Below are positions 3,867 through 11,427 of a stretch of DNA of 11,436 nt, in pieces. Under the pieces are notes generated by a model that saw only the letters and a program-made list of their open reading frames with translations, made no database searches and was not told where the DNA came from. Every line of letters starts with the position of its first letter. Position 1 is the stretch's first letter. Position numbers and translations under genes: made by a program. The stretch lies in the UHGV virus genome UHGV-1406243; one strand, 5' to 3'. Source of the DNA: a virus.

Positions 3867-4166
3867 ATGAAACTTAAATATTCTGGCTTAACTGCCAGTG
3901 GCAACACTCACCCTAAATTTACGCGCGGCGATATTTACCGCGACCAGTACGGCGGCACGGTAATGATTAAGGGCGTGGAAGAACGGCGCGTAACCTACCG
4001 CCGTGAAGGTTACGAATATGATTGCGTGATGCCTGTTTATCAGTTCCGGCGTGATTTTTCTCTGGTACAGACCGCGCCGCATAACGTGTCCACCAGCAAC
4101 GCCAGGGCACGGGCAAACATCCAGAAGCTGAAAACCATGATTAACGGATTCAGGGGTAAAAAATGA
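3867..4166 (+). CDS. Hypothetical protein (99 aa)
   Basis: ATG 3867 is preceded by GGAG. Its stop overlaps the primase start (ATGA at 4163..4166). Confidence 0.7.
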   Translation: MKLKYSGLTASGNTHPKFTRGDIYRDQYGGTVMIKGVEERRVTYRREGYEYDCVMPVYQFRRDFSLVQTAPHNVSTSNARARANIQKLKTMINGFRGKK

Positions 4167-5917
4167 AACTGGCACCGAACGTAAAACAGCAGTCACGCGG
4201 CATAAAACACAAAGAAACAGAAGTCATTATTTTTGCGGGTAGTGATGCCTGGTCACACGCAAAACAATGGCAGGAACATGACGCGCGTATGGCCGGAGAT
4301 AATGAGCCTCCTGTGTGGCTTGGGGAGCAGCAGTTATCCGAACTGGATAAGCTGCAAATTGTGCCGGAAGGCAGAAAATCCGTGCGCATATTCAGGGCCG
4401 GATATCTTGCGCCAGTAATGATAAAGGCGATTGGTCAGAAGCTGGCGGCGGCAGGCGTACAGGATGCAAATTTTTACCCTGATGGTATGCACGGTCAGAA
4501 GGTGGAGAACTGGCGCGAATATCTGGCCCGTGAGCGCCAGAATCTTTCTGATGGTCTGGTCATTGAGCTTCCGGTAAAGCAAAAGGCGCAACTTTCGCAG
4601 ATGGCGGACAGTGAGCGCGCGCAGCTGCTTGCCGATCGCTTTGATGGCGTTTGCGTACATCCTGAAAGTGAAATCGTTCACGTATGGCGCGGCGGGGTAT
4701 GGTGTCCGGTCAGCACAATGGAACTTAGCCGCGAAATGGTGGCGATCTATTCAGAGCACAGGGCCACTTTCAGCAAGCGCGTAATCAATAACGCCGTGGA
4801 AGCGTTAAAAGTTATTGCCGAACCAATGGGCGAGCCGTCCGGCGATTTGTTGCCGTTCGCCAATGGTGCGCTTGACCTGAAAACGGGGGAATTTTCCCCG
4901 CACACGCCGGAGAACTGGATCACCACGCACAACGGCATTGAGTACACGCCACCAGCACCAGGGGAGAACATCCGCGATAACGCGCCAAACTTTCATAAAT
5001 GGCTTGAGCACGCAGCCGGAAAAGACCCGCGCAAGATGATGCGTATATGTGCCGCGCTGTACATGATTATGGCGAACCGGTACGACTGGCAGATGTTTAT
5101 TGAGGCCACCGGAGACGGCGGGAGCGGTAAAAGTACATTCACACACATAGCCAGCCTTCTGGCAGGGAAACAGAACACGGTAAGCGCTGAAATGACATCG
5201 CTTGATGATGCTGGTGGACGTGCGCAGGTTGTCGGGAGTCGTCTTATCGTCCTGGCTGACCAGCCGAAATATACAGGCGAAGGAACGGGCATCAAGAAAA
5301 TCACGGGCGGTGACCCCGTGGAAATTAACCCGAAATACGAAAAGCGTTTCACGGCGGTAATCAGGGCGGTGGTGCTGGCGACCAACAATAACCCGATGAT
5401 ATTCACCGAACGGGCCGGAGGTGTGGCACGTCGTCGCGTGATTTTCCGTTTCGACAATATCGTCAGTGAGGCCGAAAAAGACAGGGAGCTACCGGAAAAG
5501 ATCGCGGCTGAAATCCCTGTCATTATCCGCCGATTGCTGGCGAACTTTACCGACCCTGAGAAGGCACGGGCTTTACTACTGGAACAGCGTGACGGTGATG
5601 AAGCTCTGGCAATAAAGCAACAGACGGATCCGGTTATTGAGTTTTGCCAGTTCCTGAATTTTCTGGAGGAAGCACGCGGCCTGATGATGGGCGGCGGTGG
5701 CGATTCAGTGAAGTACACGACCAGAAACAGCCTTTACCGCGTCTATCTGGCGTTTATGGCGTACGCAGGCAGGAGCAAACCGCTAAACGTAAATGACTTT
5801 GGCAAGGCTATGAAGCCAGCCGCGAAAGTTTACGGACATGAATATATTACGCGGAAAGTTAAGGGAGTAACGCAGACTAACGCAATAACAACAGACGAGT
5901 GCGACGCGTTTTTATAA
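4163..5917 (+). CDS. Replication initiator: P4 alpha-like primase/helicase (D5-type SF3 NTPase domain)
   Basis: 584-aa ORF. Walker A GDGGSGKST and Walker B-like RLIVLADQ are read directly in the C-terminal half. Gene size and the iteron array immediately downstream match satellite Pri-Rep / P4 alpha proteins. The N-terminal primase domain was not confirmed motif by motif. Confidence 0.85.
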   Translation: MKLAPNVKQQSRGIKHKETEVIIFAGSDAWSHAKQWQEHDARMAGDNEPPVWLGEQQLSELDKLQIVPEGRKSVRIFRAGYLAPVMIKAIGQKLAAAGVQDANFYPDGMHGQKVENWREYLARERQNLSDGLVIELPVKQKAQLSQMADSERAQLLADRFDGVCVHPESEIVHVWRGGVWCPVSTMELSREMVAIYSEHRATFSKRVINNAVEALKVIAEPMGEPSGDLLPFANGALDLKTGEFSPHTPENWITTHNGIEYTPPAPGENIRDNAPNFHKWLEHAAGKDPRKMMRICAALYMIMANRYDWQMFIEATGDGGSGKSTFTHIASLLAGKQNTVSAEMTSLDDAGGRAQVVGSRLIVLADQPKYTGEGTGIKKITGGDPVEINPKYEKRFTAVIRAVVLATNNNPMIFTERAGGVARRRVIFRFDNIVSEAEKDRELPEKIAAEIPVIIRRLLANFTDPEKARALLLEQRDGDEALAIKQQTDPVIEFCQFLNFLEEARGLMMGGGGDSVKYTTRNSLYRVYLAFMAYAGRSKPLNVNDFGKAMKPAAKVYGHEYITRKVKGVTQTNAITTDECDAFL

Positions 5918-5929
5918 TTTTTTGTAATT

Positions 5930-6160
5930 GCTGTCTACCCTGTCTACCTGAGTAAAGAAAAATACATTTAATTCAGTGCATTAAGTTAGGTAGATAGCCT
6001 TTTTTTACTGTCTACCCACTATCTACCCTCTCTACCTGATTTTACCTGAATCAGACAGGGAGGTAGACACGGGGTAGATAGTGGATAAAAGCACTCTACC
6101 CCGCTGAAAGCCGCGCCATTACTGGTATGAGGGCCACTAAGGTAGATAAGGTAGACAAGG
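5930..6160. other. Putative origin of replication: iteron array of YCTACC / GGTAGAY motifs with dyad organisation; duplicated at 6379..6609
   Basis: At least 11 copies of the core (T/C)CTACC. Direct copies lie at 5933..6048 (TGTCTACCCTGTCTACCTG, TGTCTACCC, ATCTACCC, TCTACCTG) and inverted copies at 6061..6160 (GGTAGACAC, GGTAGATAG, GGTAGATAAGGTAGACAAGG), centred near 6055. It sits directly downstream of the primase gene. Confidence 0.55.
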
Positions 6161-6205
6161 GGAGGCACAACTCAAAACTTTTTAAACGAGGGGGTAAAAA
6201 TAAAT

Positions 6206-6262
6206 ATGCACACTTCAGGGAAATTTAATAAATCACTCAAAATGACTTTGGCAAGGCTATGA
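6206..6262 (+). pseudogene. Truncated duplicate of the start of the 92-aa gene (18 codons, then stop), created by the tandem duplication
   Basis: Same RBS and first 12 codons (MHTSGKFNKSLK) as the gene at 6655; the reading frame then runs into the duplicated primase 3' fragment and stops. Confidence 0.4.
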
Positions 6263-6654
6263 AGCCAGCCGCGAAAGTTTACGGACATGAATATATTACG
6301 CGGAAAGTTAAGGGAGTAACGCAGACTAACGCAATAACAACAGACGAGTGCGACGCGTTTTTATAATTTTTTGTAATTGCTGTCTACCCTGTCTACCTGA
6401 GTAAAGAAAAATACATTTAATTCAGTGCATTAAGTTAGGTAGATAGCCTTTTTTTACTGTCTACCCACTATCTACCCTCTCTACCTGATTTTACCTGAAT
6501 CAGACAGGGAGGTAGACACGGGGTAGATAGTGGATAAAAGCACTCTACCCCGCTGAAAGCCGCGCCATTACTGGTATGAGGGCCACTAAGGTAGATAAGG
6601 TAGACAAGGGGAGGCACAACTCAAAACTTTTTAAACGAGGGGGTAAAAATAAAT

Positions 6655-6933
6655 ATGCACACTTCAGGGAAATTTAATAAATCACTCAAAAAACGCAGAG
6701 ACAGAACAGAACCGAAATATCGCGCGTTAGACATGACAGAGCACGCTTTAAAGGTGGCAATCAGAACGATAGACCGCCACGCGGGGGAAGGATACGCGAA
6801 AGCACATCCCGAACTGATAAGCGCATTCATGACCACGACGGCGGCAAATTTTGCCACGCTGACAGAGCGGGAGATTGCCGAAGCGGAACAGGTAACAACC
6901 ATCAACGTTAAAACCGGAGAGGTGGAATCATGA
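6655..6933 (+). CDS. Hypothetical protein (92 aa)
   Basis: Strong RBS GAGGGGGT upstream; stop overlaps the ssb start (ATGA). Confidence 0.65.
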   Translation: MHTSGKFNKSLKKRRDRTEPKYRALDMTEHALKVAIRTIDRHAGEGYAKAHPELISAFMTTTAANFATLTEREIAEAEQVTTINVKTGEVES

Positions 6934-7352
6934 CAGCACAGATAGCAGCTTACGGGCGGCTGGTGGACGACCCGCAGGTAAAACAGACCAGCAAGGGCAC
7001 ACCGATGACGCTGGCGCGTATGGCGGTCCCCCTTCCGTGCAGCCAGGCAGATGACGGAACGGCGACGATGTGGTTATCCGTCCTGGCATTTGGCAGACAG
7101 GCCGAAGCACTGGAAAGGCACCGCAAGGGTGAACTCCTGAGCGTGGCGGGTAACATGCAGATCAGCCAGTGGACTGGGCAGAACGGAGAAACGCGGCAGG
7201 GCTGGCAGGTTATCGCAGACAGTGTAATCAGTGCGCGAACGGCGCGACTGGGCGGCAAAAAAGGTCAACAGGGCCAGGCTACTGACGCGCTGAACAGGGC
7301 AAAACAACAGGCGGGGAATGATGATCCGTACGGGGATAACATACCGTTTTAA
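6930..7352 (+). CDS. ssb: Single-stranded DNA-binding protein (short SSB with acidic C-terminal tip)
   Basis: OB-fold pattern comparable to E. coli SSB (IAAYGRLVDDPQVKQT..WLSVLAFGRQAEALERHRKGELLSVAGNMQISQWTGQNGETRQGWQV) and C-terminal DDPYGDNIPF matching the conserved D-D-D-I-P-F tail. Confidence 0.85.
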   Translation: MTAQIAAYGRLVDDPQVKQTSKGTPMTLARMAVPLPCSQADDGTATMWLSVLAFGRQAEALERHRKGELLSVAGNMQISQWTGQNGETRQGWQVIADSVISARTARLGGKKGQQGQATDALNRAKQQAGNDDPYGDNIPF

Positions 7353-7368
7353 GCGACGAGTGACAGAA

Positions 7369-7390
7369 GCCGGAGCAATCCGGCTTTTTT
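7369..7390 (+). terminator. Rho-independent terminator after ssb (GCCGGA-gcaa-TCCGGC + TTTTTT)
   Basis: Hairpin and T-run are read directly. A near-identical hairpin recurs at 9810..9832. Confidence 0.6.
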
Positions 7391-7767: not shown

Positions 7768-7974
7768 ATGGCTGAAGAGAAAAAAGGCGGTGTTTCGGTG
7801 TACATAAGCCCCGAAATCGTGGAGGTGCTCAAGCAGCGCCACAAAAAAAACTATGAGGCTGGCGTGGCGGCTGGACTGGATCCGCTGATGACGCCGGAGC
7901 CGTCGATAGGTTCACTTGTACGCTCTTATTTACTTGCGGCGCTTGGGATGCATAAAAATTATGGGGGTGAATAA
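7768..7974 (+). CDS. Hypothetical protein (68 aa), translationally coupled to the major capsid gene
   Basis: RBS AGAGGA upstream; its stop TAA overlaps the capsid ATG (TAATG). No recognisable similarity by eye. Confidence 0.65.
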   Translation: MAEEKKGGVSVYISPEIVEVLKQRHKKNYEAGVAAGLDPLMTPEPSIGSLVRSYLLAALGMHKNYGGE

Positions 7975-9029
7975 TGGCAGGCAAAGCAACGGCACTTAAC
8001 ACTAACCAGCTTTTCATGTACCTGAATCGCGGGGATATTGCGGATTTTAAATTCAGCCCTCTGTTTACTACGCTGTTTTTCCCGAACGTGGCGACATTCA
8101 GCACGCAAAACATCATGCTGGATACCCTGGACATTGAAGAAGTCACCATGTCGGCGTTTTGTTCGCCTATGGTGGGTAGCCAGGTTCAGCGCGATAAAGG
8201 GTACGAAACCAGCACGATTAAACCTGGCTACATGAAGCCAAAGCACGAAATCGATCCAACGAAAACCATCATGCGCATGGCTGGAGAAGATCCGGCACAG
8301 CTTAACGACCCTACCTATCGCCGTATGCGCCTGATTACTGGCAATATGCGCCGCCAGATAAACGCCATAAAAGCGCGCGTGGAATGGCTGGCGGTAAATG
8401 CGGTAACGACCGGAAAAAACATCATTGAGGGCGAAGGCATAGAGCGCTATGAAATCGACTGGAAGATACCGGAAAAAAACATCATAGAGCAGGCCGACGG
8501 GAAAAAATGGTCAGCGCAGGACAAAGAAACCCACGATCCAATCTATGATATCGAACTATACGCCGATCAGGCTGGTTGCCCCGCAAACGTCATGATTATG
8601 GGCGCTGAGGTATGGCGAACGTTACGCAGCTTTAAAAAATTCCGTGAGCTGTACGATCTTTCCCGTGGTTCAGAATCCGCCGCCGAACTGGCCTGTAAAA
8701 ACCTGGGCGAAGTGGTGAGCTTTAAAGGCTATCTTGGTGATCTGGCCCTTATCGTCTATTCCGGCAAATACACTGACAGCGATGGTACCGAAAAATATTT
8801 CCTTGAGCCTGATTTGCTGGTCCTAGGTAACACCAACAATAAAGGGCTGGTGGCCTATGGTGCGATAATGGATCAGGAAGCGGTAAGAACGGGCGCAACA
8901 CAAAACATGTTTTACCCGAAAAACTGGATTGAGGACGGCGATCCGGCGATTGAGTACGTGCAGACACACAGTGCACCGCAGCCGGTACCGGCAGATATTC
9001 GCAAATTTGTTACCGTCAAAATTGGTTAA
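7974..9029 (+). CDS. Major capsid protein, phage lambda gpE family
   Basis: Multiple collinear blocks match lambda gpE as I recall it: FKFSPLFTTLFF vs FKFDPLFLRLFF; PGYMKPKHEIDP vs PGYVKPKHEVNP; EDPAQLNDPTYRRMR vs EDPQNLADPAYRRRR; RGSESAAELACKNLGEVVSFKGYLGDLALIVYSGKY vs RGSNSELETAVKDLGKAVSYKGMYGDVAIVVYSGQY; YPKNWIEDGDPAIEY..SAP vs YPKNWVTTGDPAREF..SAP. Length 351 aa vs 341 aa. Confidence 0.92.
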   Translation: MAGKATALNTNQLFMYLNRGDIADFKFSPLFTTLFFPNVATFSTQNIMLDTLDIEEVTMSAFCSPMVGSQVQRDKGYETSTIKPGYMKPKHEIDPTKTIMRMAGEDPAQLNDPTYRRMRLITGNMRRQINAIKARVEWLAVNAVTTGKNIIEGEGIERYEIDWKIPEKNIIEQADGKKWSAQDKETHDPIYDIELYADQAGCPANVMIMGAEVWRTLRSFKKFRELYDLSRGSESAAELACKNLGEVVSFKGYLGDLALIVYSGKYTDSDGTEKYFLEPDLLVLGNTNNKGLVAYGAIMDQEAVRTGATQNMFYPKNWIEDGDPAIEYVQTHSAPQPVPADIRKFVTVKIG

Positions 9030-9041
9030 CGGGGGGATTCT

Positions 9042-9377
9042 ATGGACACTCCATACATTGAGTTATTTGCAGGCAGTCAGCGGGTCGCCACGACGCTGGT
9101 ACATTTTGCCGCTGATGCTGGCGTTATTCAGGAATTTACCCCGCTGATGCTGGCAGACAATGGCGAGTTTAAGCCGTGGGATGGTCAGGAATCTGGCAAG
9201 GCTGTTTATCTGACCTCGTACCCTGTGGACACGTCAAAGCAGAAATCAGCACAGTGTTACAAGACGGGGATTTTCAATATTGCCGCCGTTAACTGGCCTG
9301 AGAGCGTCGACACCGATGCGAAAAAATGCGCCGCCTTTGCGGGTTCCGGCGTATCCGTTCAGCCGCTGGCCCGATAA
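9042..9377 (+). CDS. Head decoration protein, phage lambda gpD family
   Basis: 111 aa vs 110 aa for lambda D. Blocks TPLMLADNGEFKPWDG vs TPLMLDTSSRKLVAWDG and YKTGIFNIAAVNWPESVDTDAKKCAAFAGSGVSVQ vs [44 protein letters not shown] upstream. Confidence 0.88.
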   Translation: MDTPYIELFAGSQRVATTLVHFAADAGVIQEFTPLMLADNGEFKPWDGQESGKAVYLTSYPVDTSKQKSAQCYKTGIFNIAAVNWPESVDTDAKKCAAFAGSGVSVQPLAR

Positions 9378-9389
9378 GCAGGGGGAACG

Positions 9390-9803
9390 ATGGCAACGAA
9401 TGAAAGCGTCATGACGCTACCGCTGGCGAGTAAATTTAAAGCCGAAGCGCGGGCAATGGCTGACAGAGGTTTATCAACCTACGAGGCCGTATATCAACTC
9501 AACAAACTGGAAGAGCAGGACAAGCCGCGCGCTGATGCGATTATGGCGCTTCATGAACATAACGACTATCAGCCGCTGTTACGTGCAATGGCAAACGTGC
9601 CATGTATTAGCGTCGATAATGCTCGTGAAATCCTGAACATGACCATAGAGCAGGAGCGCCCAAAGGTTGCGCCGGAGCTTACCGCAGCCTTTGAAAACTT
9701 TATGGACATGCACAGCCCGAAAGCCGTATCACCCGGCATGGCATACGACGGCAGAAACCAGGGCGATGAAGGCGACGTCGATCGCATACTGAAAACCATC
9801 TGA
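9390..9803 (+). CDS. Hypothetical protein (137 aa), last gene of the capsid module
   Basis: RBS GGGGG upstream; followed by a terminator. No recognisable motif by eye. Confidence 0.7.
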   Translation: MATNESVMTLPLASKFKAEARAMADRGLSTYEAVYQLNKLEEQDKPRADAIMALHEHNDYQPLLRAMANVPCISVDNAREILNMTIEQERPKVAPELTAAFENFMDMHSPKAVSPGMAYDGRNQGDEGDVDRILKTI

Positions 9804-9809
9804 CATAAG

Positions 9810-9832
9810 GCCGGAGAAATCCGGCTTTTTTT
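9810..9832 (+). terminator. Rho-independent terminator (GCCGGA-gaaa-TCCGGC + TTTTTTT), abutting the cosQ-like sequence
   Basis: Read directly; near-identical to the terminator at 7369..7390. Confidence 0.6.
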
Positions 9833-9912
9833 ACGGGTCCTTTCCGGCATATGGACCCGTTACGGGGCGGCGACCTCGCGGGTTTTCGCTATTTATGACG
9901 TTTTTCCGTGAA
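9830..9912 (+). other. Lambda-type cos site: cosQ-like TTTACGGGTCCTTTCCGG, cosN with the 12-nt cohesive-end sequence GGGCGGCGACCT (9864..9875), and a proximal cosB with one R3-like element
   Basis: 40 contiguous bases at 9858..9897 (GTTACGGGGCGGCGACCTCGCGGGTTTTCGCTATTTATGA) match the junction of the lambda right and left ends as I recall it, and TTTACGGGTCCTTTCCGG matches the lambda right-end sequence. It lies about 90 bp upstream of the Nu1-like gene, as in lambda. Confidence 0.8.
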
Positions 9913-9965
9913 GGTGACACCACCACCACTTGATTAATATTTAACCATGCAGTTAAGGTAACATT

Positions 9966-10400
9966 ATGATTGATAAAGCTTGTTTTGTAAGTCAGCAGGA
10001 AATAGCTGAACATTTCAAGGTTAACAGAACCACTATTCGCGCATGGACCAAACAGGGGATGCCGTATCTTAATGCGGATCGCGGAAAGTCTGGCGGTTAT
10101 CACATCGGGCATACATTGCTTTGGTCTTCAGGTAAAAGCCGTCTTGAGACCATCAGATATCACGTAGAAACCAGTGCGCTGGAAAAAATTATGTTTGCCA
10201 GGCTGCTTTCATCTGAGCGTGACGAGTACTCCAGTGAAGAAACAGAACATCGATTTGATGAAGGTTTGCAGATTTACGGCTATTCACCGGAAGATGTGAG
10301 CAAGGCACGAAATAAAATGGCTGGCTTTCTGGCTGGGTGGCGTCATGCCATAAGCGTTCGCCGTGCCAGCATGGAGCAATCAGCCGATACAGAACAGTAA
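9966..10400 (+). CDS. Terminase small subunit homologue, lambda Nu1-like N-terminal DNA-binding domain with a divergent, shorter C-terminal part
   Basis: VSQQEIAEHFKVNRTTIRAWTKQGMPYLNADRGKSGG aligns with lambda Nu1 VNKKQLADIFGASIRTIQNWQEQGMPVLRGGGKGNEV. 144 aa vs 181 aa; I could not align the C-terminal half to Nu1. Sits directly downstream of the cos site. Confidence 0.8.
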   Translation: MIDKACFVSQQEIAEHFKVNRTTIRAWTKQGMPYLNADRGKSGGYHIGHTLLWSSGKSRLETIRYHVETSALEKIMFARLLSSERDEYSSEETEHRFDEGLQIYGYSPEDVSKARNKMAGFLAGWRHAISVRRASMEQSADTEQ

Positions 10401-10453
10401 AGCCGATAACTTGTTAATCACTCGCAGCAATGCATGTGATTTGTGCACACTTT

Positions 10454-10568
10454 CGGTTAACTGGTTCGATGTCCGGTTTTAGTGTCTGTTTTTTGCGCAT
10501 GTCCGGTTCATGGAAAGCATGTTTTTATATTTTTCATATGGTTAACTTGCAGAGAAACCGGACATGGA
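10454..10568 (-). repeat. cosB-like repeat set belonging to the inverted cos: three ATGTCCGGTT elements (10470..10479 and 10499..10508 direct, 10557..10566 inverted) separated by an AT-rich stretch (10520..10545), plus a GGTTAAC duplication
   Basis: Repeats are read directly. Their spacing from the inverted cosN (about 40, 100 and 135 bp) and the AT-rich spacer resemble the lambda R3-I1-R2-R1 layout, but with a different R sequence (TCCGGTT vs lambda CGTTTCC). Confidence 0.45.
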
Positions 10569-10570
10569 TC

Positions 10571-10654
10571 CCGAAAAATTTTCATAAATAGTGAAAACGC
10601 GCGAGGTCGCCGCCCCGTAACGGGCCATAATTCCAGGAAGGACCCGACGACACC
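10571..10654 (-). other. Second lambda-type cos site in inverted orientation (reverse complement of cosN AGGTCGCCGCCC at 10604..10615, with cosQ-like and proximal cosB flanks)
   Basis: The reverse complement of 10571..10654 reads GGTCCTTCCTGG..GTTACGGGGCGGCGACCTCGCGCGTTTTCACTATTTATGAAAATTTTTCGG, matching the lambda cos junction on both sides of cosN. It is an inverted copy of the cos at 9830..9912. Confidence 0.75.
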
Positions 10655-10679: not shown

Positions 10680-10961
10680 ATGACAGAAGCCGAACTACTG
10701 GGATTAATCCGCCGCGTTACCGGAATCAGCCAGCAGCATGACGAACAGGCCACGCAGCCGGACAGCGTGACCGCCGAAAATTACGCGCGTGTGGTTGCTG
10801 AGGTGATGCGCCGTGATGGTATCCAGCTTAATGATGTGGATATGCGCAACATACGGATCCGCGTTCTTGAAATGCTGGCCTACAATCGCCGCGTGGCACT
10901 GTATCGGGAAACGGAGAAAATTACGTACCACTGGAAGAAGCCGGAGCGGTTACGGCGTTAA
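10680..10961 (+). CDS. Hypothetical protein (93 aa)
   Basis: ATG 10680 follows GGGGG by about 5 nt. It is in frame with the 159-aa ORF in the track, whose upstream extension runs through the inverted cos site and is unlikely to be coding. Confidence 0.55.
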   Translation: MTEAELLGLIRRVTGISQQHDEQATQPDSVTAENYARVVAEVMRRDGIQLNDVDMRNIRIRVLEMLAYNRRVALYRETEKITYHWKKPERLRR

Positions 10962-10967
10962 CGAGTA

Positions 10968-11012
10968 GCGACATACCGTGACGGAGAGTGACAACCAGTG
11001 ACACGCCGTGAC
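10968..11012 (+). repeat. Phased array of GTGAC pentamers at exact 10-bp spacing (10978, 10988, 10998, 11008, plus GCGAC at 10968)
   Basis: Read directly: aGCGACataccGTGACggagaGTGACaaccaGTGACacgccGTGACaaaag. Further GTGACC / GGTCAT motifs and the near-palindrome TGGTCATAATGACCA (11122..11136) follow downstream. Confidence 0.6.
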
Positions 11013-11298
11013 AAAAGACGGTTTAACCGTTAATTAAAAATTGACGGGATTTTGTGCTTTCCGGACGACGTGACCAACGTCATTTTTTAGCGAAAAGTTC
11101 TGATTAAGGTCATTGTCTGAATGGTCATAATGACCACTCCTACAAAACAGGTAAAGCCCACCAGCCTGATTAACAGTTAACCGGAAAAAAAATCCGGTAG
11201 CCCCGTTATGGGGATCCCCATATCAACATTAACGCCCCTCATGAATTAGCGCGCTTCCCCCTGGAAAGATGACCCGCCTGTATATTTCTTGTGTCTAT

Positions 11299-11355
11299 TT
11301 GTTCCACGTTGTTTCATACAGTGCACCGAACGGTGTAGTCACTGGTGTAGTCATT
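11299..11355. repeat. attR-side arm region: TTGTTCCACGTTGTTTCA followed by tandem 12-mers GGTGTAGTCACT / GGTGTAGTCATT (11332..11355); direct copy of 96..161
   Basis: CGGTGTAGTCACTGGTGTAGTCA is read at 11331..11353, identical to 137..159. Confidence 0.5.
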
Positions 11356-11427
11356 TTGCGATTTATGGCACTTTTTGTAGTGCAAATCATTTAATTAAAT
11401 CAATGCGTTAAGTGAAATTAGTTATAT

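Follow-up and report, generated by a model that had tools for sequence, protein, structure and literature searches.

The window, that is, the whole 11,436-nt stretch of virus genome UHGV-1406243, carries an ATG-to-stop open reading frame (ORF) of 144 aa at exactly 9966..10400 on the + strand, as given by the ORF list of the window, which we assign below to rppA. Its genomic setting consists of the genes and att repeats of a phage-inducible chromosomal island (PICI), with a cosQ-cosN segment and then a non-phage cosB containing the R3-PICI core. The genes along the island are as follows:

185-1399: integrase
1457-1726: AlpA-like regulator
4163-5917: D5/primase-type replicase
6930-7352: SSB
7974-9029: gpE-like major capsid gene, 44% identical to lambda E
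9042-9377: gpD-like decoration gene, 36% identical to lambda D
9390-9803: 137-aa ORF (phrog_1999), with a weak C-terminal match to phrog_53, the head-protease PHROG
[quoted passage not shown]
10680-10961: 93-aa ORF (phrog_1561)

We also considered the ORF at 9390-9803 as a Nu3-like scaffold and rejected it, given that BLASTP against lambda Nu3 returned an E-value of about 1. Deletions of c1499 and c1500 (gpE-like, gpD-like) have been found to give no phenotype. The att repeats have identical 22-nt cores (138-159 and 11332-11353, GGTGTAGTCACTGGTGTAGTCA) within 76-nt repeats (88-163 and 11282-11357), and in E. coli O18:H1 CFSAN067215, which matches the window at 100% identity over the aligned segments, the island splits tqsA, which encodes an AI-2 transporter.

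Other repeated sequences were noticed across the window. A perfect tandem duplication of 449 bp (5791-6239 and 6240-6688) takes in the 3' end of the primase gene, the iteron-rich (GTCTACC / GGTAGA) presumed origin of replication and the beginning of the ORF that follows. The corresponding gap measures 289 nt in CFSAN067215 and 738 nt in the window, so the duplication is absent from CFSAN067215; it may be real and recent, or an assembly artefact. A terminator-like hairpin followed by a T-run, GCCGGAG(A/C)AATCCGGCTTTTTT, occurs twice (9810-9831 and 7369-7390), and one copy ends exactly at the start of the cos1 cosQ, which puts a late-operon terminator right against the packaging site. Three direct 16-nt repeats (AGCGACATACCGTGAC, AGTGACAACCAGTGAC and AGTGACACGCCGTGAC) occupy 10967-11012, immediately past the 93-aa ORF.

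RefSeq calls the same ORF in both E. coli CFT073 and CFSAN067215, under the name 'hypothetical protein'. The product of the window ORF is identical at 142 of 144 residues (99%) to CFT073 c1503 (C_RS07025, WP_000565609.1, 144 aa), the two substitutions being T62 and I129 (A and V, respectively, in CFT073). CFT073 c1503 was named RppA ('redirecting phage packaging'), of the island EcCICFT073, by Fillol-Salom et al. 2019 (Mol Cell 75:1020, PMC6739421). A phmmer search against the PDB returned RppC as the best match (6hlk_A / 6hn7, E=4.5e-31) over residues 2-125 of 144, and RppB-type proteins are 81-83% identical to the window protein. Residues R21, T22, L51 and F121, which were mutated in PMC6739421, are all present in the translated ORF, the first three being invariant in an alignment of RppA, RppB and RppC; mutagenesis in that study assigned R21/T22 to DNA reading, L51 to the TerS contact and F121 to homodimerisation. 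We conclude, at a probability of about 0.95, that the product of ORF 9966-10400 is RppA, by which a PICI of the EcCICFT073 family redirects packaging, and that it works by the mechanism published for the 99%-identical protein; none of our results speaks against this. AlphaFold2, run on the single sequence without an alignment, gave a mean pLDDT of 44.3, which is too poor for a fold search, with a helix order compatible with alpha1-alpha6 that does not count as evidence; the fold that we propose for the window protein is taken from its homology to the crystallised RppC. A scan of species-level genome contigs with the RppA/B/C alignment had a single match, at 2501-2776 of the Dokdonella sp. (Xanthomonadales) MAG JBDSNK010000172.1 (L007). 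The protein there is 33% identical to RppA residues 1-93 and could be a distant Rpp or merely a TerS-like HTH.

The original prediction, made from the nucleotide sequence, had described a Nu1-like small terminase that keeps the DNA-binding N-terminus and has a shorter C-terminal part. Its N-terminal assignment is borne out, with a similarity above chance, both in pairwise alignment and against a profile: BLASTP against full-length lambda Nu1 (181 aa) aligned residues 8-71 with Nu1 3-55 (19/64 identities, 30%; pairwise E=2e-6), and the PHROG small-terminase profile phrog_57 matched residues 7-46 (E=4.2e-8). Moreover, phmmer against the PDB recovered the Nu1 DNA-binding-domain structures 6hn7_B and 1j9i (E=0.06-0.1). 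The lengths that it compared (144 aa for the ORF, 181 aa for Nu1) are correct, and the C-terminal part indeed resists alignment, with a best BLASTP E-value of 31 for residues 69-144 against Nu1. RppA covers only positions 12-51 of the 199 in phrog_57, compared with 12-189 for a true TerS, that of PhiR12. Judging from BLASTP and the phrog_57 coverage, RppA has no counterpart of the central oligomerisation and C-terminal TerL-binding domains of Nu1, and the comparison with full-length Nu1 showed no conserved gpA-binding C-terminus. No terL occurs anywhere in the window; rppA is followed by cos2 and then by the 93-aa ORF, whereas terS overlaps terL in lambda, PhiR12 and the prophages considered below.

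These results bear on a reading in which the gene is a bona fide island small terminase, in effect a shortened Nu1, that binds cosB, recruits helper gpA alone and replaces helper TerS. In its favour, the N-terminal winged-HTH resembles that of Nu1, and rppA lies just downstream of cosQ-cosN, as Nu1 does in lambda. However, the oligomerisation and TerL-binding regions of Nu1 are unmatched and no terL comes after rppA. Deletion of terS from a phi80 helper abolishes transfer of the island (PMC6092414), so Rpp is no substitute for TerS, and the reading is refuted for the 99%-identical protein. In addition, the escape mutations lie in terS and RppA binds TerS (PMC6739421). We consider it very improbable. 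An HTH transcription regulator of the island, of MerR, BldC or excisionase type and with no packaging role, appears even slightly less probable. Pfam and NCBIfam scans of the ORF did produce matches to generic HTH families, yet all were sub-threshold and far under the family cutoffs (17-18 bits vs 21-77); the Rpp family is in neither library, the full-length match is to Rpp, and genetic results show a role in packaging (PMC6739421).

Returning to RppA, the activity of the 99%-identical CFT073 protein has been established experimentally. Lambda and phi80 are blocked when RppA is expressed, HK97 is not, and deletion of rppA restores plaque formation by lambda; phage escape mutations fall in terS (E65K and others); both RppA and RppC bind TerS and form homodimers, the published experiments including two-hybrid and pull-down assays; and island transfer is lower with an rppA deletion or with TerS escape mutants (all PMC6739421). 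Thus the gene-deletion and TerS co-binding tests suggested by the original prediction were already published for RppA. Its proposal of a packaging-redirection factor was correct, as the function was shown experimentally in 2019 for the 99%-identical RppA (PMC6739421) and reanalysed in 2022 (PMC9026076). Its picture of a small terminase contacting gpA differently was wrong: the TerL-binding part is absent, and RppA heterodimerises with helper TerS. The RppC structure has a winged-HTH at its N-terminus (residues 1-64), with an RMSD of 1.6 Å to Nu1 1J9I, and three C-terminal helices for dimerisation. In the crystal of RppC with TerS(1-98), the DNA-binding domain of Rpp replaces the second TerS domain, giving TerS-Rpp2-TerS (PMC6739421). 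Murialdo and Feiss 2022 noted that TerS exceeds Rpps in length by 30-40 residues and that Rpps have no TerL-binding domain, and proposed that TerS in the complex carries TerL to the island cosN (PMC9026076).

We next consider the DNA on which RppA acts. The gene begins 89 nt downstream of a lambda-type cosQ-cosN and lies between the two arms of a 78-nt inverted repeat (9834-9911 and 10569-10646, 82% complementary). Each arm contains a cosQ of lambda type together with GGGCGGCGACCT, the cohesive-end sequence (9865-9876 on the + strand, 10604-10615 on the - strand). The upstream copy is cos1 and the downstream, inverted copy is cos2 (Fig. S1A, PMC6739421). The parts of cos1 are:

9830..9845, + strand: cosQ of cos1, TTTACGGGTCCTTTCC, equal to the cosQ of lambda and of EcCICFT073 cos1 (Fig. 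S1A, PMC6739421) and conserved in all rpp loci
9865..9876, + strand: cosN of cos1, the lambda-type 12-nt cohesive end GGGCGGCGACCT, read from the sequence, in the inverted-repeat arm
9902..10046, + strand: cosB of cos1, placed by phi80 chimera primer positions and overlapping the first 27 codons of rppA
9908..9945, + strand: conserved cos1 cosB core, GTGAAGGTGACACCACCACCACTTGATTAATATTTAAC, near-invariant in 23 distinct rpp loci and containing the TTGATTAATATTTAA segment
9912-9929, + strand: proposed R3-PICI, bp 48-65 as counted from the cohesive end, with the invariant bp 55-63 at 9919-9927, ACCACCACC (PMC9026076)

The published phi80 cosB chimera primers map exactly to 9902-9927 and 10025-10046, so the functional cos1 cosB spans 9902-10046 and runs into rppA. 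In plasmid transfer experiments, RppA raised the transfer of a cos1 plasmid and lowered that of phage-cos or cos2 plasmids; when cosB segments were swapped, only the cos1 cosB gave RppA-dependent transfer, in either a cos2 or a phi80 context, and R21A/T22A abolished the stimulation of transfer by RppA (all PMC6739421). Transfer of the island itself was lower for delta-cos1 and higher for delta-cos2 (PMC6092414). The support is genetic, and it shows that RppA acts through the cos1 cosB (9902-10046).

When compared with phages, cos1 matched over cosQ-cosN only (~85 nt), the cos1 cosB being without a phage match. For a comparison we gathered 25 rpp loci in IMG/VR and three more in E. coli genomes, which yielded 23 distinct upstream sequences. 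The block GAAGG(T/G)(G/T)ACACCACCACCACTTGATTAATATT(T/C)AA, at about 9908-9945 of the window, is near-invariant in all 23, including the RppC-type locus L032 (protein 44% identical), and the 38-nt core (…ACACCACCACCACTTGATTAATATTTAA…) is common to RppA, RppB and RppC islands (L001, L005, L006, L008-L032). The adjacent cosN core falls into at least five sequence types across the rpp loci, and the spacer and coding sequence diverge as well. Against four diverged loci, identity is 89-92% over the core and 66-77% over the cosQ-cosN segment. The three RppB-type loci are as conserved over the first 30 rpp codons as over the core (90-93%), and RppC-type L032 alone has a core (89%) clearly above its coding sequence (74% and 61%). 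The conservation of the core agrees with, and slightly extends, the R3-PICI proposal (PMC9026076), and is not a new idea; it also suggests that cosN is matched to different helper TerL proteins with the Rpp site held fixed. AAGGT-AAC-like direct repeats (~9911, 9955 and 10016) were considered as R elements as well; the third was dropped, not being conserved in the RppC-type locus, and within this repeat region only the block 9908-9945 is conserved.

Combining the published mechanism with these positions, window RppA would dimerise via its C-terminal helices, as shown for the 99%-identical protein, and the Nu1-like winged-HTH of each protomer would displace one partner of the helper TerS DNA-binding-domain dimer to form TerS-Rpp2-TerS. 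Such a complex would no longer recognise the phage cosB, so that the phage would be blocked, and would instead recognise the island cosB at cos1, immediately upstream of rppA, so that the island would be packaged. We infer that helix alpha-2 of RppA (R21, T22, R25, K29) reads the ACCACCACC-containing core at 9908-9945. Because RppA is without a TerL-binding tail, TerS would supply TerL (gpA), which would then cut the lambda-type cosN at 9865-9876.

The second, inverted cos comprises the following elements:

10420..10651, - strand: cos2 ('EcCICFT073 cos2', Fig. S1A, PMC6739421), with cosQ at 10637-10651, cosN at 10604-10615 and cosB at ~10420-10575
10469..10566, - strand: three R-like repeats of the cos2 cosB, in minus-strand reading CATGTCCGGTT (10556-10566, the R3 position), AACCGGACATG (10498-10508) and AACCGGACAT (10469-10478)

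These repeats are present as ATGTCCGGTT at 10469 and 10499, with an inverted copy AACCGGACATG at 10556-10566. The original prediction had offered the repeats at 10470..10566 as a possible target of the protein; they do exist, but they are not the RppA target, since they belong to the cosB of cos2 while the published swaps need the cos1 cosB.

The minus-strand sequence of cos2 aligns over 179 nt, at 93.3% identity, with the cos region found in Escherichia phages PhiR12_1 to _5, and the identity spans cosQ, cosN and all three CCGGACATG-type repeats. In PhiR12_1 the same block sits directly upstream (~50 nt) of the phage's own Nu1 (TerS) gene; in E. coli prophages it lies ~50 nt upstream of terS (WP_000235436.1), which is followed by terL, gpW and portal genes. 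The prophage TerS is identical to the PhiR12 TerS and shares with lambda Nu1 its C-terminal half only (46% identity), the DNA-binding half being unrelated. We also tried the cos2 repeats as phage-21 R boxes and rejected this: the alignment with phage 21 extends only through cosN/I2, and all that its annotated R boxes have in common with the repeats is a GTC(C)GG-like core, so cos2 is not of the phage-21 type. Taken together, cos2 looks like a complete captured phage cos with a packaging specificity unlike those of lambda and phage 21.

An inverted cos2 was present in every rpp locus with enough sequence (L005, L006, L008-L032), and the cosB of cos2 is modular, occurring in at least three versions that are told apart by their repeats (CATGTCCGG, GGTTGTTGT and CACTTCCGG) across rpp islands. 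Several islands have different cosN cores in cos1 and cos2. Neither the GGTTGTTGT nor the CACTTCCGG type matched deposited phages beyond cosQ-cosN; the captured phage cos holds for the type found in the window. A joint reading of both sites, which these comparisons lead us to put forward only tentatively and which we hold to be somewhat less than an even bet, is that the constant cos1 cosB serves the Rpp route (lambda-, phi80- or 21-type TerS), that cos2 derives from a PhiR12-type lineage and serves Rpp-independent packaging, and that the cos2 cosB (and some cosN) may be swapped to match local helpers. A captured phage cos fits the published inhibition of cos2 by RppA as a phage-like site (PMC6739421). 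The PICI packaging papers examined describe both PICI cosB regions as 'completely divergent' from phage, and do not discuss cos2 as a captured cos. If true, an unmodified PhiR12-type terminase would package the island via cos2, and the helper range may widen. We regard the cos2 observation as a modest lead, and possibly the only new angle here.

The literature already covers the protein with its structure and mechanism, both cos sites and the absence of a TerL-binding tail, and the window, which carries a near-identical allele of the characterised RppA, adds nothing new on the protein; its practical value lies in annotation. RefSeq lists WP_000565610.1 and WP_000565609.1 as 'hypothetical protein' despite the 2019 crystal structures and functional data. 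Because an Rpp model is in neither Pfam nor NCBIfam and the RefSeq label is 'hypothetical', sequence-only readers will keep rediscovering RppA. The family bears on how virulence islands spread and on delivery vehicles engineered from PICIs, and Rpp represents the textbook one-protein strategy of Gram-negative cos-type PICIs, which blocks the helper and secures their own packaging.

Among known systems, the closest is EcCICFT073 RppA. Its neighbours are the same (gpE-like, gpD-like, 137-aa ORF, cos1, rppA, inverted cos2, 93-aa ORF), and the DNA of the region around the ORF is 97.9% identical to the window. In contrast, the CFT073 island lies between roxA and phoQ and the window island in tqsA, the att core of the window is absent at the CFT073 locus, and the window has the 449-bp origin duplication. 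Given the two integration sites, the window is an EcCICFT073-family PICI with a different integration module, that is, a distinct island with the packaging module in common. RppC of EcCIEC2733.1 (6HLK; with lambda TerS 1-98, 6HN7) likewise has an N-terminal winged-HTH and C-terminal helices, is 38% identical to RppA in the RppA/B/C alignment and conserves the DNA-reading residues and L51. Unlike RppA, it has 153 aa, and it binds TerS more tightly; the alpha-6 dimerisation helix is poorly conserved between the two proteins, which do not cross-dimerise (PMC6739421). Lambda gpNu1 (TerS, 181 aa, 1J9I) differs from RppA in having central oligomerisation and C-terminal TerL-binding domains; the DNA-reading residues and target sequence of RppA are different, and RppA dimerises through its C-terminal part rather than through the DNA-binding domain. 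Finally, SaPI TerS and Ppi, of Gram-positive pac PICIs, resemble Rpp in that helper packaging is blocked and island packaging favoured (PMC6739421), although SaPIs divide the task between a TerS of their own and a second protein that inhibits phage TerS, whereas Rpp is one protein that keeps the helper TerS in the complex.
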